Below, in pieces: positions 40,586 through 49,762 of a DNA stretch of 64,000 nt. Positions within the stretch are counted from its first letter, which is position 1; the number at the start of each line of letters is the position of its first letter. This stretch comes from an uncultured candidate division Zixibacteria bacterium (lineage in GTDB: Bacteria > Zixibacteria > MSB-5A5 > UBA10806). Position numbers and translations under genes: made by a program. The notes under the pieces are model-generated. The model ran no database searches. It was not told the DNA's origin and saw only the letters and a program-made list of their open reading frames with translations. The stretch is taken from NCBI GenBank assembly GCA_963801605.1, contig CAWDFP010000007.1:64001-128000 (forward strand), read 5' to 3'.

Positions 40586-42657
40586 TTACCTTGCTGGCGG
40601 ACAGGAAGGACAAGGCGTCGGCGACGGCCCGCCTTTGAAGAAAGATACCATATAGGTTACATCCAAACCGTTGAAGGAGCAGGAGGCGTTAACATCGCCG
40701 GATACAAACCAGGTGTTGCCCGGTGTACATTCGCAGGAATAGGGAGGCAGGGGCCCGCCCTTGAAGTAGGAGACGGAATAGGTAACATCAAGGCCGTTGA
40801 AGGTGGTCGAGCCATTGGCGTCGCCGGGGGTGTAGGCGCAAGGAGGGGGGCCAAAGTTTGTGCGCAAAATCATAAGAGAGTTATTATCTGCCACATAAAC
40901 ATAAGAGCCGGAAACAAATAAATCTTCGGCCCAGCCTGGCGTATCAAAGCTTCCCTGCAAGGTGGGGTTTGAGGGGTCGGAGATATTTACTATCTGAAGG
41001 CCGGCATAGTAATCGGCCACATATGCATAAGAGCCGGAAACAAATACCCCCGAGCTACAACTGGCGTAGCATAGCTCGCCTGCAGAGTTGGGTTGGAAGG
41101 ATCAGAAATATTTACTATCTGGAGGCCGGAAGACCAATCGGCCACATAGGCATAAGAGCCTAAAACGAATACTGCATAGGCAATGCCCGGCGTATCATAG
41201 CTCGCCTGCAAGGTGGGATTGGAAGGATCAGAGATATTTACTATCTGAAGGCCGGATTCGCCATCGGCCACATAGGCATAAGAGCTTGAAATAAATACGC
41301 CTAGGGCAGGGCCCGGCATATCATAGCTCGCCTGCAAAGTGGGGTTGGAAGGGTCGGAGATATTTACTATCTGAAGGCCGGAATAGTAATCGGCCACATA
41401 GGCGTAAGCGCCCGAAACGAATACTTCCTGGGCATAGCCTGGCGTATTACAGCTTCCCTGCGGGACAGGAGATGAGGGATCAGAGATATTTACTATTCGA
41501 AGGCCAGTGGAGCCATCGGCCACGTGGGCAAAGGAGCCTGAAACGAATACTCCATGGGCTTGGCCTGGCGTATCGTAACTTCCGCTTAAGGTCGGGCTTG
41601 AGGGATTGGTGATATTTACTATCTGAAGGCCTGAAGTGTAATCGGCCACATAAGCATAAGAGCCTGAAACGAATACTCCCTGGGCATAGGTTGGCGTATC
41701 AAAGCTTCCCTGCAAAGTGGGGTTTGAGGGGTTAGAGATATTTACTATCTGAAGGAAGAACCCATCGGCCACATAGGCATATGAATCTGAAACGATTACT
41801 CCCAAAGCATTGCCTGGCGTATCGAAGCTACCCTGCAAAGTGGGGCTTGAGGGATTTGAGATATTTACAATCTGAAGGATATAACCATCGGTCACATAGG
41901 CATAGGAGCCTGAAACGAATACTCCCCGGGCCTCGACTGGCGTATCATAGCTTCCCTGCAAGGTGGGAGTTGAGGGGTTAGATTTATTGACAATTTGAAG
42001 GCCGGAATAGCCATCGGCCACATAAGCGTAATTGCCGGAGACAAAGACGTCAGAGCCCTGTCTGGCGTATCATAGCTTCCCGCCAGGGTTGGGCTTGACG
42101 GATTGGAGATATTGATAATCTGAAGGCCGGATGTGTCATCGGCCACATAAGCGTAACTGCCGGATACAAAGACGCCATAAGCAAAGTCCGGCGTATCGAA
42201 GCTTCCGGCCAGTGTCGGGCTTGAGGGATTGGAAATATTGACAACCTGAAGGCCGGAAGAGCCAGCGGCCACATAAGCGTAAGAGCCGGAAACGAAAACG
42301 CCTAAAGCATCGATGGCGTAAGCTGCCGACCAGAGTCGGACTTGAGGGATTGGAGATATTTACTATCTGAAGTCCGAAAGAGGCATCAGCCACATAAGCG
42401 TAAGAGCCGGAGACATCAATTGCTTTTCCATAACCTTGAAGAAAATATTGGCTTACAAATACAGGCGCTGCAGGGTCTGAAATATCGAGGATAACAAGTC
42501 CATTTACAAAAGCGCAATAAGCATAATTGCCAACTACTTCGACATCAATGACGCCGGTCCAGAGGGTTGAGCCGACATATTCTACGTTTTGGGCGTGAAT
42601 ACCGGCCGCGCCGAGCAGCATCAAGAATACCGAAAAAATCAGAACAAAACGATTCAT
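40586..42657 (-). CDS. Secreted LVIVD-repeat protein with dockerin-like tail, several frameshifts
   Basis: Signal peptide MNRFVLIFSV, about 13 repeats YAYVAD..SGLQIVNISNP..P, C-terminal GDANG..NGLD. Confidence 0.85.
40890..42510 (-). repeat. Coding tandem repeat, about 126-bp unit, about 13 copies
   Basis: GATATTTACTATCTGAAGG-like core recurs every 122-126 bp. Confidence 0.9.
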
Positions 42658-42740
42658 CTTTTCCTCCAAAGGAAAAAGCCAGGGCCAAATGGAACTCTTT
42701 AGTTTTTCTGCCAGTATCCCAAAAGAAGATAATAATAATA

Positions 42741-42768
42741 CAGGCCCAATATAATAGAATTGGGCCTG
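42741..42768 (-). terminator. Hairpin after the Omp28-like gene
   Basis: CAGGCCCAAT/ATTGGGCCTG. Confidence 0.55.
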
Positions 42769-42794
42769 AAAACAATCCAAAATTTAGGAACTGC

Positions 42795-44111
42795 CTATGG
42801 CGCCGGCGGACAGTCCGGGCAGGGTCCCGGTGTTGGCCCTCCCTTGAAATAAGCGACGCCGTAGGTAATATCAAGCCCGTTAAAGCTACAACTTCCATTT
42901 ATATCACCAGCCACAAACCAGGAATGACCCGTGGTGCATTCGCAGGAATATGATGGCGGTGGTCCGCCCTTGAAGTAACCCACTCCGTAGGTAACATCCA
43001 ACCCATTGAAGGTGTTACTGCCATTAATATCGCCAGTCACGTAAATACACCCGCTCGGCGGCTCATGCACCAAAAAATGGAATATAGATGCGCTGGATCT
43101 TTCAGGCGCATGGCCATTGAAAGCTACAACCTTCCAGTAATAGGTGGAATCATTAGGAACACAGAGCGGGGGAGACCAGGTGGTGTCGGAGAGCGTGTCT
43201 GAAATAAGGAAAGGATTGCTAAATGAAGGCGTAAAGTTAAGATATGCCAGGTAACGCACTGCATAGCCTGAATCGGTATCAATGGTGCTGTGCCAAGCAA
43301 CAGTAGTTGTGCATGTGGGAATCGTATCCCCATTGACGGGGGAAATCAGGGTGAAAGGTTCGAGATAGTATGTCATCGTCATGACATTTCGCTTAGCGCC
43401 CTGTAAAATCCTGTGGCCTGAATCCGATTGAACGAAAACAACCACATCGCAATTAGCCTGAACCAAAGGACTGGGACAGGAGAAGGCTTGTGATAAATTA
43501 ACAGTATCGCCGTTGGCAATTGTAAGGGCGATACCGCCGGAGTTAGGCGTTAAATCCCTGAATGTCTGATTGTGTATTGTCGTGCCGTTTGGCGACGAGC
43601 GATTTATGTTTGATTCTGTTATCGCAATGCGAACCTTTAAGTTGGTATTCGTAATTGGAGCAGTTGCGATAATCGTAATATTTGCATGGCCGGCGCGAGT
43701 TGTAGAATTGTAATCGCCGGCAATTTCAATATCAAGCGGCGAGCTAACTGCCAACTCTGTATTGATTCTCGATCCCCAGGTGCCGTGGGTGGCCCCAGCA
43801 TCAATATTTCCGTCAATGAACAAGCTTGGCGCATAATCATTGCCATAGTAGCTGTCTCTGGCAGTTATCTCGGAAATATTATATTGATAGTAAGGATCGC
43901 TTGAGTCCGGATAATATCGGTGGTAACGAATAAGAATTAGGCGATCAGGATGAAGAGTAGCTTGCTGATCTAGGACCAGATCAGCGGCGGGGCAAGATGG
44001 TCAGCACCAGTTGGTTAACATCTCCCCAACGACGATTCTTTCGGTGGCCAAAGCATGCCCGACAAGCAGGCAAAATCCCAAAGCAACAAACAATACCGCA
44101 GTCATCCTCAT
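42795..44111 (-). CDS. Putative secreted selenoprotein: Omp28/thioredoxin-like domain (CUxxC), beta-rich linker domain, dockerin-like tail; 438 aa
   Basis: ATG 44111 after GAGG, signal peptide, EMLTNWC-TGA-PSCP, frame continuous into the tracked 342-aa ORF. Confidence 0.85.
43964..43985 (-). promoter_or_regulatory. SECIS-like hairpin
   Basis: GCTGATCTG-GTCC-TAGATCAGC starting 15 nt after the in-frame TGA (44001-44003); G-first apical loop. Confidence 0.75.
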
Positions 44112-44399
44112 ACACTTACCTCTCTGTCTGTGTGAATCGGTCTATGGATCAATAAAAATAATTTAGACAAAAATTGAAATAAATTCGGGGCAAAAATCGA
44201 AGTGTTGTTAATCACGCAGCGGTCTCTTTATCATGCCAACGATTCAAGTATTTTTACAGAAGAAGCCAGGCAACCGCCTGAAGTCTTTTATATAGATACC
44301 ATATAAGATTATTTTGTCAAGTATTTTACAAGGCAAAAAATCAAAATTGTAAAGGGAGGAAATATGGAATCTACAGATGAAGGCGATTCGAATTTGAGA

Positions 44400-45416
44400 T
44401 CACCATCGCTGTTTTAGGAGATTAGACAACTGCGGTCCGGTCATATTTGATTCCAATACAACCGTTTTGCCCTGCTTGGAGATATTTAAGCTTTCGAGCA
44501 GCGCCCTATTCGGATCGTTAGGGGGCAGGAATGAGGCCAGCCCGCCACCAATCTGGAAAATGCTGGAAACAATCAGGGCGTTGCTTTCACTATCCATTCC
44601 CAGATAGCCATTTACGAGAAACCCGTTGCCACTTGGGGAGATCGACAGGCCAACCTCATCGAGATAATCAACGTAACCAAGAGCGGCGCGGGCAGTAGAT
44701 GATCGTATTTGGACGGTATCGGCCTTGACGAGATTCCGCATTTCGGGAGTTACCAGGATAAACATGTTGGCAAGTTTGGAGTCATTTGTCGAAAAATCCT
44801 GACTCAGACGCTGAAATGTATCGTATGTCGAGATGCCGGGCGCTTTACCGCCGGCAACATCGAGTATGCTTTTAATAATCTCCTCAGAGCCTCCGACCGC
44901 TAATCCTCCTCCCGGAAGCTGGCTGATACATTCGCCGTCTTTCGGGTTAAGCAGGTAGGCAGCGCCGGTCGACCACCATAGAAGCTTTTTATTGGAATAG
45001 TTTATCTCTTTCCAACCTTTGGATTTAATGGTTTGAAGATTGATTTTGTTATCGAGATTGCCGGTGATGATAAAAGCGCCATTTGAGGGAAGCTTTCGTG
45101 GTATGGCCGTTGTTTTTGATCCCTTAATCCAGCTTTTATCAAAAGGCATAAACATTACCAGGCGATCAATATTGGCAAGATCCAGATTCATCAATCCCAA
45201 ATAGTAGCTTAACGTGTTATTTCCCAGCATGGCCGTTTTGAGATCGGGATATTGCGCCACTTGTCCGGGTCTCATCCACAACACAACTTGCGCGTTGCCC
45301 GGAATAGGGGCGACTATCGTTTGTTGAGCCAAGGCTATACCGCCTGCGAGCGATATTACCGCCCAGGTCGTAAGTATAGAGATTAATCTTATTTGGTTGT
45401 TTTTCATTTTATTCAC
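44400..45416 (-). CDS. Exported hypothetical protein
   Basis: 338-aa ORF with signal peptide ending ALA-QQ. Confidence 0.75.
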   Translation of the reverse strand: MNKMKNNQIRLISILTTWAVISLAGGIALAQQTIVAPIPGNAQVVLWMRPGQVAQYPDLKTAMLGNNTLSYYLGLMNLDLANIDRLVMFMPFDKSWIKGSKTTAIPRKLPSNGAFIITGNLDNKINLQTIKSKGWKEINYSNKKLLWWSTGAAYLLNPKDGECISQLPGGGLAVGGSEEIIKSILDVAGGKAPGISTYDTFQRLSQDFSTNDSKLANMFILVTPEMRNLVKADTVQIRSSTARAALGYVDYLDEVGLSISPSGNGFLVNGYLGMDSESNALIVSSIFQIGGGLASFLPPNDPNRALLESLNISKQGKTVVLESNMTGPQLSNLLKQRW

Positions 45417-45774
45417 TTTCTATTTATTCATAATTTGCTCGAACTACTTAATGTTTGCGAAAAATGGCGGGATGTCAATAACGATTTTTTAATTAAATCA
45501 ATTTAATGATAAATCATAATTGGAGTTTGCTAATTAAAATGCGAAGGGGGGCTTATATTTATATTAATTCGGTTATTAAGCGATACCTGCATGGTAATAA
45601 CATTTTGCTTGTAATTTTGCGATTTTTGGGCTATAATTAACGTGGTAATGATTATCTTCGATGCCTGTCGAGGTTGTGTTGATCAGAATTGGAAATTGCA
45701 GTAACGGAGTCTTTAATTTCGCAAGGTTTTCGCATTTTCATATAGTGGTACCTTAGTGGAGATTGGAGGTAGAT

Positions 45775-48700
45775 TTGAAAAGCTCTACACTTGTGTTTGT
45801 CATCCTGCTGGCCCTAACAGGGTTGGCGTACCCCGCTCAAACGGTTAACATAGGCCTAACGCCATCGGGGGCGGAGCTTCTCTTTCAGGATCAATCCGGA
45901 ATTGACCTGCGAGTAGATGTGGGGGAATTGAATTTCGACGAAATCAATACCTCTGAAGGGCAATTTATCTTGATCACGTCCGACGGATTGGGAAGCTCTC
46001 AGAATATAGGTGAGCCTAACCTGCCGATATTGAATCGTCTGATTTCAATCCCGTATGGATGCGAACTTCAGTGCGAAGTTACCAGTTCGGAATACCAGGA
46101 TATTTCGCTTTCAGATTTGAATTTGACCAATCCTATTATGCCCGTACAGCCGCCGCTCTCAAAAGGAGTTGATCCGGCGACGGTTCCTTTTGAATACAAT
46201 CGAAGCGTATACCAGCAGAGCGGCTATTATTCTCAGCAACTGGCGTCAGCTCAGATTCTTGGCGTGATGCGCGCGATGCGAATGGGATTGGTTTCAATAG
46301 CTCCGATACAATATAATCCGCTTGAAAATACTCTTCGAGTTTATAAAACGGTAACCGTCCATATAAGCTATCTTCATCCGGATTGGACAACCACCCGTCA
46401 AACCTGGGAGCGCCTTGATTCGCCAGTCTACTCAACAGTATATGGGCAGGTATTCAACTATGTTGGTCAAGAATCAATGCTGCTCGAAGACCATACCAGA
46501 TACCCGATAAAATATGTAATCGTTTCGCCGAGAATGTTCGAAACTCAGCTACAACCATTCATTCAATGGAAAATTAAAAAGGGTTTTAAGGTCGTAGTCG
46601 GTTATACGGATGTCATTGGGACGACCAATACAGCCATAAAAACATGGATTCATAATTTGTACGATGCCGGCACTCCGGACGACCCGGCGCCATCGTTTGT
46701 GCTGCTTGTCGGTGATGCTCAGCAGATTCCGCCGTTTTCATTCAGTACTCACATCTCCGATCTCAGCTTTTGCGAATTTACCAATGATACTTATCCCGAG
46801 ATATATTATGGGCGTTTCTCAGCGCAGACGGTCGCGCAACTGACTCCTCAAATAGACAAGACTCTGGAATATGAAAAATATCTGATGCCCGATCCCAGCT
46901 ATCTGGGCAGGGTTACTATGATCTCCGGCGTCGATGCTAATTACGCTCAGCATCAAGGCAATGGGCAGATCAACTATGGAACCCGCTATTATTTCAATTC
47001 AGCTCATGGAATCACGTCCAATACCTGGCTTTATCCGGCCTCAAACGGTAATGTGGAAGCCGCCATTATCGCGACGATAAATAGCGGCGTAAGCTTCATC
47101 AACTACACCGCTCACGGCTCTCATGATGGTTGGGCCGATCCATCGCTATCAACATCCAACGTCAACGCGCTTACTAATGCGCATAAATATACATTAGCGG
47201 TGGGAAATTGTTGTTTGACGAATACCTTTGGAACCGATTACTCCGACCCGTGCATGGGCGAAGCCTGGCTACAGGGAGCTAACAAAGGAGCTATCGGCTA
47301 TATCGGGGCATCCAACAACAGCTACTGGGATGAGGATTATTATTGGGGAGTTGGATGGCATACCGTAATTGACAACGGTCCCGACTATGATCCGACTCGT
47401 CTGGGCGCTTATGATGGCGTTTTCCATACTCATGGCGAACCTGTCAGCCGTCATTATGTGACCAACGATGCCATGCTTTATTGCGGCAATTTGGCGGTTA
47501 CCCAATCGGGTTCAAGTATGATTGCCTACTACTGGCAAATTTATCATCTGATGGGCGACCCCTCGGTAATGACTTATCTCGGCCTCCCAACGACTAATAA
47601 TGTAGTGCATACGGGGTCGATGCTCTTTAGCGGCACGACATATACAGTTCAAGCCGATCCCGGCTCATACGTGGGTATCTCTCTCGATGGTGTCCTGCAT
47701 GGGGCGTCATATATTGATTCATCAGGATCGGCTAACATTACGCTTGATCCATTCAGCGGCCCGGGTACAGCGGATATCGTGGTAACCGCTCAAAACCGGA
47801 TTCCCTATACCGGAACGATTCAACTAATTGCGCCATCCGGCCCGTTTGTAGTATTCGACAGCAGCAGCGTAAACGATGCCACCGGCAACAATAATGGGAT
47901 CATCGATGCCAGCGAGCATATAATTTTGGGTGTACGTCTGAAAAATGTGGGACCTGATACGGCCCACGCTGTTTCGGCGACCCTGGCCTGTACAGATACT
48001 TTTGTAACCGTAACTGACAATACCGAATCGTATGGTGACATTATTGGCAATAACGGAACCGTAAACAGGCCGAGCGCTTTTGCTTTCAATGTTTCAGGAA
48101 GAACTCCGGAAAATCACAATATTTCATTCCAGATCACAATGACGGATGATGCCGCTCATAACTGGAACGGCACAATTTCCCTGCCCGTTCATTCGCCGGC
48201 GCTAAGTTATGCGTCGATCCAGATAAATGACGGTTCCGGCAATAATAACGGGGCGCTCGATCCCGGCGAAACCGCTCAGCTGGTGGTAACGCTTCAAAAT
48301 AACGGTTCCGGCCAGGCTTTTGCAATTACGGGTATCCTTTCCGAAAACGATACATATATCAGTTTAGGCGATGCCAACGGTACTTTCGGAAATATACTTG
48401 CCGGAGGAAACGGTAATAATTCCGGCGATCTATTCTCCATAACTGCCAGTTCATCTTGCCCGCTGGGTCATACCTTTAATTTAATTCTGGCATTAACCGG
48501 AGCCGACGGATATGTAACATCCGTGCAGATTCCCATGGTAGTAGGGATTAGAGTGCCGATTTATACGGATGATTTTTCGACCAATCGAGGCTGGACCGGT
48601 CTTGGCGGTCTTGGGCAATGGACTATTGGAGCCTGCACGGGCGGCGCCGGCAACGATACTCATGGCGGTCCCGATCCCTCTGTCGATCACAGCCCGACAA

Positions 48701-49762
48701 GCGACAATAAAGTACTGGGAACAGATCTGACCAGCGGAACCGGAGGGGATTACGATTCCAATTTGACGCAAACCTATTGGGTAACATCCCCAACAATAGA
48801 CTGCTCCAATTACAGCGGTGTTCAATTGCAATTCTACCGTTGGCTGGGGGTGGAACGCGTATTATATGATACCGCATATCTTCAGGCTTACAACGGCAGC
48901 GCCTGGGTAACTCTATTCCGCAATGATTCCACGCTGGATGAATCTGCCTGGATTTTGCGAACGCATAATATTTCATCGTATGCCGATCATAATGCAAATT
49001 TCAAGATCAGATTTGGAATCGGCGGCTCAGATCACGCCTGGCAGTTCTGCGGTTGGAATATCGATGATATTTTAATCAACGGATATCAGGAAGTTGCTCC
49101 GGGGAATCCTGATCTTTCACTTTCGATAAATAGTCTGGCAGATACCCTGGTTCAGGGCGATTCGGCCTCACACTCGTTCAAAATATACAATGGGGGAACG
49201 TCCGATCTGCGGATAACATTTAACTGCACGGCCGCATGGGTTAGATATTCGGGTAATCAAATTACGGTACCGGCTAATGACAGCGCCAATTATTCGTTGA
49301 CGCTTCGTTCCGCCAGCCTTTCGCCCGGGCCGTTTGCGACTATCGTTAACCTATGTCTCCAACGATACCGGTAATGCCTCGGGGTCAATCCCGATCAGTT
49401 TGTTGGTCAGGCCGGTTGCTCCGCCTCAGTGTGAATATATCCTGGGTGACGTTAATGGAAATAACGTCTTTAATGGTTTGGATGTAACTTACGGCGTTGG
49501 TTACTTCAAAGGTGGAATCCCTCCGCCATATAGCTGCGAATGTCCGGCGGGAAGCGGTAATTACTGGTTTGTCGCTGGCGATATTAACGGCAGCTGCTCA
49601 TTTAATGGCCTGGATGTAACTTTTATGGTAGCTTATTTCAAGGGCGGCGGCGTTTTAACCACCTGTCCTGATTGTCCATCGTCAGGAATATTGAAAGCTC
49701 CGCAACAACCTATCTTAGTACCTACCGCAAACCAAACCAATGGGAGTGGATCGTCGGAATAG
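45775..49762 (+). CDS. Gingipain-like C25 cysteine peptidase with dockerin-like tail, frameshift near 49345
   Basis: Propeptide GEPNLP, LLVGD, YGRFSA, YTAHG (His), GNCC (Cys), LMGDPS; GGAGG RBS with TTG start. Confidence 0.88.

Follow-up and report, generated by a model that had tools for sequence, protein, structure and literature searches.

We detected a minus-strand gene at 42795..44111 of the window (the whole stretch of 64,000 nucleotides of Zixibacteria DNA analysed here) whose in-frame UGA codon 37 is, on comparison with homologous genes, very probably read as selenocysteine (Sec). The gene product is likely an exported thioredoxin-fold oxidoreductase with a U-P-S-C active site containing Sec37, which would reduce or reshuffle disulfides of cysteine-rich secreted proteins. 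We suggest that the gene is a divergent relative, carrying a dockerin-like tail, of a family predicted in 2008, and that it very likely encodes a selenoprotein.

The minus strand from 44111 to 42795 is a single frame of 438 codons followed by TAG (42797-42795), so that a protein of 438 aa is predicted if UGA37 is Sec. The only internal stop is TGA codon 37 (44003-44001), in the context E-M-L-T-N-W-C-U-P-S-C-P, where Cys36 is encoded by TGC at 44004..44006, the predicted Sec occupies the nucleophile position of the UxxC motif and Cys40 (43992..43994) is the resolving cysteine. A candidate ribosome-binding site, AGAGGT (44118..44123, minus strand), lies 6 nt before the ATG at 44111, and a terminator-like hairpin was found by consensus match 3' of the gene (42741..42768, minus strand). 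The database protein P0003 (342 aa) and the mechanical open reading frame both begin at TTG 43823, 96 codons 3' of this ATG; the first-pass annotation had extended the frame upstream to ATG 44111 with a stop at codon 37 only, and re-reading of the frame bore this out. Gene callers thus lose the signal peptide and the entire active site, and the annotation is corrected here. The closest full-length Cys form of the gene, the orthologue P0002, is also 438 aa long, has the same architecture and is 63% identical over residues 23-245; of the 67 database matches, most span only 48-90% of the domain.

The protein is likely exported, as had been proposed: residues 1-22 (44046..44111; MR, a hydrophobic core and ALA) resemble a signal peptide when judged by eye, and a crude count places a hydrophobic stretch here in 108 of 129 homologues. 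Residues 23-245 (43377..44045) form an Omp28/HBP35-like module, predicted as a thioredoxin-like fold followed by a beta-sandwich. Residues 246-352 (43056..43376) have no Pfam match and appear to form an FN3/Ig-like beta-sandwich with a Cys267/Cys317 pair, according to the all-beta model and FN3 fold matches. The dockerin-like tail with six Cys occupies residues 353-438 (42798..43055).

The comparison of homologous sites carries most of the argument. Pooled over all loci, 134 distinct sites were tallied, 107 with TGA and 27 with TGY, leaving out 6 matches without the [CU]xxC motif and those starting beyond query residue 60; Cys40 is present in all 134 by definition. In these homologues, drawn from independent assemblies, TGA was always aligned to Cys. 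The search for Cys/UGA homologue pairs suggested in the first-pass annotation was therefore positive, and it included a full-length Cys orthologue, P0002. Because 35 of the sites came from metagenome loci chosen by their SECIS pattern and are biased, the other 99 (73 TGA and 26 TGY) were used as the unbiased set. The source genome itself has a paralogue at C6:195857 with N-W-G-TGA-G-Y-C and the same hairpin. The Omp28-like domain was found in all 24 genomes of the order and, at E 1e-10, in 23 of 151 genomes drawn from the phylum. On a quick tree of 130 rows the Sec forms are intermingled with the Cys forms, with 21 changes between them, at least 15 of which are forced by strong branches. The p-value of 5e-9 obtained from homologue counts overstates the case, since the homologues are kin, some of them near-copies, and the counts are not independent events.

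In several relatives (loci L149, L085, L087, L152, L145 and L084), 3-4 Omp28-like genes stand in tandem, Sec forms together with Cys forms. One homologue (L048, G080:C17:72794-73456) has the shifted motif S-G-G-G-G-U-P-Q-G, in which TGA takes the place of the resolving Cys and Cys is absent.

The predicted SECIS hairpin (43964..43985, minus strand, within codons A43-Q50) was found as claimed, with a G-first loop, GUCC, on a 9-bp stem (43985-43977 with 43972-43964); the stem starts 15 nt and the loop 24 nt after the TGA. The 22-nt hairpin alone folds at -11.5 kcal/mol (z -3.7), and the fold of the whole 64-nt segment is unexceptional (z -1.15). The bacterial SECIS consensus in the available text of PMC13188914 has a loop of 3-9 nt with G in the first two places, a stem of 4-16 bp, a distance of 16-37 nt from UGA and a minimum free energy of -7.5 kcal/mol or lower, and the loop, stem, distance and energy found here all fall within it. 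By chance, a G-loop stem of at least 9 bp at that distance follows 827 of 103,794 TGA triplets in the genome (0.8%) and arises in 301 (1.5%) of 20,000 sequences that recode this peptide synonymously; scanning the whole genome for a TGA with a hairpin returned mostly noise.

The hairpin is more informative across the family, where its presence tracks the TGA. Counting G-loop stems with an energy of at most -5 kcal/mol, a threshold of our own choice, we found one after 66 of the 73 TGA sites versus 3 of the 26 TGY sites in the unbiased set, so that 7 Sec sites lack a hairpin by this test and 3 Cys sites pass it. The exact core GATCTGGTCnTAGATC follows 31 of the 73 TGA sites and none of the 26 TGY sites. 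In a first tally, the peptide ADLVLD was coded GAT-CTG-GTC-YTA-GAT in 13 of 13 unbiased Sec members, and distant members have another hairpin, four bases nearer the TGA. Base pairing over 13 sequences (85.5% paired, 3 pairs changed on both sides) counts as weak evidence, since the query supplied the structure and Sec members stand beside Cys members in the set.

The source genome (G000; 3.06 Mb, 87% complete) has selC, selD, selA and selB in one cluster (C6:1293256-1299696). The selA, selC and selD genes score above their cut-offs; selC matches RF01852 with 68.7 bits and is called tRNA-SeC by ARAGORN, and selD itself carries an in-frame TGA and a hairpin. The check for Sec machinery was thus positive for these three genes and qualified for selB (C6:1297842-1299696), which is present but split in the assembly by one frameshift near C6:1298435. 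The selB gene scored above its cut-off in all 24 relatives searched, 3 of them as partial matches, and is split only in the source genome among the 25 genomes scored. A true frameshift would mean no Sec insertion in this strain: the lineage would use Sec, the strain would have lost it, UGA37 would end translation, and the gene would be decaying as a pseudogene, where relaxed selection could account for a private drift from Gly36 to Cys. We regard this as very unlikely. The two selB halves still align over the full length of the SelB of three relatives (residues 1-200/229 and 189-620), and no damage is seen in selA, selC, selD, the hairpin or the 401 codons that follow the TGA. The assembly is also rich in indels. 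Of 139 orthologues of ORFs from 400 kb of genome G085, 23 are split in the source genome by 35 shifts, or 0.24 per kb, a count in which a few rows may be shadow frames. At this rate a gene of 1.9 kb has about a 36% chance of being split, and the selB frameshift is therefore probably an assembly error. The same rate is a caution for every split-gene finding in this genome.

An error-prone assembly could also have produced the TGA itself, and the public reads and contigs searched include none that spans the TGA or codon 36: four sequencing runs were found, none of them RNA and two with a small share of the sequence words, and of three 151-nt pieces aligned the nearest (43850-44000) stops one base short of the TGA. 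It is nevertheless scarcely credible that the TGA is a mistake of sequencing or that UGA is generally read as Trp or Gly here. We rejected a base-call error at the TGA on the grounds that the same codon is TGA at 107 homologous sites. General recoding was rejected because TGA is an ordinary stop in this genome, ending 177 of the 668 long ORFs (at least 400 aa), and the only tRNA with a TCA anticodon that was found is tRNA-Sec. The reading of UGA37 as Sec at the first Cys of the Omp28/thioredoxin CxxC, as first proposed, is supported by the sel genes, by the TGA and TGY homologues and by the hairpin that accompanies TGA.

The Omp28/HBP35-like module passes the gathering cut-off of Pfam PF11551 Omp28 (58-59.9 bits vs 34.9). 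It scores below that of the Omp28 lipoprotein family NF033782 of NCBIfam (41.5 vs 150), and the predicted cleavage site shows no evident lipobox. In the AlphaFold model (pLDDT 92, pTM 0.61; 49-row alignment, Sec folded as Cys), strand 1 leads through the UxxC into helix 1; two beta-sandwiches come next, and a tail of two helices closes the chain. In mature numbering, the strand spans residues 5-11 and the helix 18-31, and Pro73 precedes the strand 74-77. The model thus shows the arrangement expected of a thioredoxin fold, in which helix 1 comes after strand 1 and opens with [CU]xxC, and a Pro stands ahead of the next strand. Among known structures, HBP35 of P. gingivalis matches the fold best (5y1a; E 5.4e-14, 14% identity, TM 0.47 by query length), and the DUF1223-type 2axo is next. 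Sequence searches of the PDB found nothing below E 0.0036, and the single-protein search returned only thioredoxins at E 0.4-0.5.

From this model, the protein is probably a thiol-disulfide oxidoreductase. HBP35 is likewise secreted, with an N-terminal thioredoxin CxxC module, and the available text of PMC2907840 reports insulin reduction that is lost in the C48S/C51S mutant; it differs in having Cys instead of Sec, in its 14% identity and in a conserved C-terminal secretion domain in place of the dockerin-like tail found here. The same text cites HBP35 as complementing a dsbA mutant, an oxidase-like property, so that the thiol chemistry may run in either direction, reductase or oxidase. It also reports hemin binding by HBP35 and a growth benefit from it when hemin is scarce. 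Since HBP35 is the best fold match, the Sec protein could have heme or soft-metal binding at the cell surface as its main job, with the redox motif secondary. This is quite unlikely, given the low identity to HBP35 and that the neighbours scanned include no recognisable gene for heme or metal uptake. Sec and its costly SECIS are moreover kept in about three quarters of the members, which indicates catalysis at U37.

For the oxidoreductase reading we propose the following course of events. SelB would bind the G-loop hairpin and deliver Sec-tRNA, with insertion of Sec37, as expected from known chemistry, and the signal peptide would export the protein. The selenolate of U37 would then attack a substrate disulfide and C40 would resolve the intermediate, also by known chemistry, so that disulfides of cysteine-rich secreted proteins would be reduced or isomerised in the manner of thioredoxin. 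That the substrates are the cysteine-rich secreted proteins of the cell itself is a tentative suggestion. A DsbD/CcdA-type membrane protein, for which the source genome has 2 matches over the cut-off, may recharge U37/C40, and the dockerin-like tail could perhaps retain the protein in the envelope or on the surface.

The source genome has a second exported-looking UxxC candidate (C6:1327664-1328893, plus strand; TGA at 1327865, F-A-E-W-U-S-A-C), with a thioredoxin-like and a helical-repeat-like region and a 9-bp G-loop stem.

The first-pass annotation had proposed a functional vicinal Cys at position 36 and a dedicated link to the neighbouring C25 protease, and neither is kept in the family. 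The residue before Sec in the 107 Sec sites is S in 58, G in 19, W in 11, T in 8, A in 3, Y, N and R in 2 each, and E and C in 1 each, the single Cys being that of this gene. Cys at this position was found in none of the 27 TGY sites and in none of the 102 motifs collected from a set of 208 database proteins, where 110 proteins have no motif, many of them because they are truncated, and a pattern search for C-U with this SECIS returned only this gene among 148 loci. A conserved CU motif was rejected on these counts. The 8 W-x-U sites comprise six TGG-GGC-TGA, the TGG-GCC-TGA of the G151 orthologue and the TGG-TGC-TGA of this gene, and codon 36 is one G-to-T change, within a G run, from GGC (Gly). 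The mature chain has 13 chalcogen residues, and Cys36 would leave one thiol unpaired if the others pair as we expect. The most likely origin of Cys36 is a recent single-base mutation of a Gly codon or an error in base calling, and no conserved role is attributed to it.

The C25 (gingipain-like) peptidase gene (45763-49762, plus strand) lies 1.65 kb away, is divergently transcribed and has the same dockerin-like tail type. It is split near 49334-49374 here and is in one frame in the G151 orthologue, so the split is likely an assembly indel. The two genes could be functionally joined, the selenoprotein serving as a dedicated reductant for this protease and Cys36 forming a functional vicinal pair with Sec37; CU motifs are known in other selenoproteins (PMC13188914, Table 1, in the available text), and C25 is also adjacent in G151, of the same genus. 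We consider this combination quite unlikely. G151 is the only one of 6 orthologous loci with 5.7-7.8 kb of upstream sequence in which C25 is adjacent (a seventh locus has only 2.3 kb upstream); C25 is absent from the other five, and a conserved C25 partnership was therefore rejected. In addition, the G151 orthologue has W-A-U, not W-C-U, and the counts for Cys before the active-site residue in Sec sites, TGY sites and protein CxxC motifs stand against a functional pair. The bacterial CU selenoproteins SaoL, HgcA and SaoC, listed in the same table, share the adjacent Cys-Sec in translation; they have different folds, and the CU found here is private to one gene. If Cys36 is real, a three-chalcogen C-U-x-x-C site can be imagined, as a switch between a vicinal Cys-Sec ring and a U37-C40 bond or as a soft-metal clamp, which with tail docking on cohesin scaffolds beside secreted proteases would make an extracellular selenium redox module; we regard this as improbable.

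A better-kept neighbour is the upstream gene for a 338-aa, likely secreted protein (44400..45416, minus strand), which is retained upstream in several close orthologues and in 2 of the 6 orthologous loci above. This protein has a likely signal peptide, falls in unnamed atlas clusters and gives weak DUF3352/TP0453 leads. On the other side of the selenoprotein gene, 40586-42780 (minus strand) encodes a secreted protein with LVIVD repeats that ends in a dockerin-like tail of the same kind; it is spread over three frames, likely through assembly indels. Near the C25 gene, 52629-53891 (plus strand) encodes a DUF5723 protein with a weak PorV/PorQ-family match.

The description of the protein as dockerin-tagged stands as far as a dockerin-like tail is concerned; as a dockerin proper the tail falls short, with 14.5 bits against the PF00404 cut-off of 22.9 and weak dockerin matches in the PDB (E 0.1-0.9). 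Like type I dockerins, it has the duplicated G-D-x-N-x-x-x-x-x-N-G-x-D loop and helix; it differs in its score below the cut-off and in six extra Cys, and cohesin binding is only conjectural. The source genome has about 44 copies of the six-Cys dockerin-like tail, 105 matches to the T9SS-type tail and 3 cohesin-like domains over the cut-off (C6:276405, 278584 and 1732450). By a rough pattern count, the tails of 110 complete homologues are T9SS-type in 68, dockerin-like in 15 and of other kinds in 27. The dockerin-like tail would thus stand where most relatives carry a T9SS-type tail, and it may be a second sorting or anchoring signal. Our literature search, which left most subscription journals aside, found nothing on dockerins of Zixibacteria.

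The novelty implied at first was overstated, as Omp28-related UxxC selenoproteins are already catalogued. The NCBIfam family NF045500, "Omp28-related selenoprotein", is equated in the available text of PMC13188914 (Table 1) with the hypothetical protein GOS_C, described in the available text of Zhang and Gladyshev 2008 (PMC2398784) as Trx-like with UxxC, with 74 Sec and 312 Cys sequences. The Trx-like fold with UxxC that defines the family in that text was found here in the frame, the model and the fold search. The gene aligns to NF045500 over aa 20-247 (E 3e-14) at 53.1 bits, where the cut-off is 200, and by this score was rejected as a member of NF045500 proper; five relatives score 31-64 bits, and the cut-off was reached in none of the 31 genomes of this group. 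The thioredoxin-like fold, UxxC, coding-region SECIS and Cys homologues are shared with GOS_C/NF045500. The gene differs from it in the FN3-like and dockerin-like C-terminus, and its named relatives are Zixibacteria, whereas the GOS set is marine metagenomic. A literature search on Omp28 with selenocysteine or selenoprotein, most subscription journals lying outside it, returned nothing relevant, and neither Omp28 nor Zixibacteria was found in the available main texts of PMC13326102, PMC12013277 and bioRxiv 2022.07.06.499078. The genome list in the supplement of PMC13326102, in the part available, has at least 7 Zixibacteria rows, so its database may hold these genes.

Taken together, the gene is not a new kind of system, its fold, motif and recoding being catalogued as GOS_C/NF045500, and the special features proposed for it, the vicinal Cys and the protease partner, are not conserved. 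As a natural system, the family is well suited to testing how Sec and Cys replace each other while the coding-region SECIS is gained and lost in step, and also to studying how selenoproteins work outside the cytoplasm.
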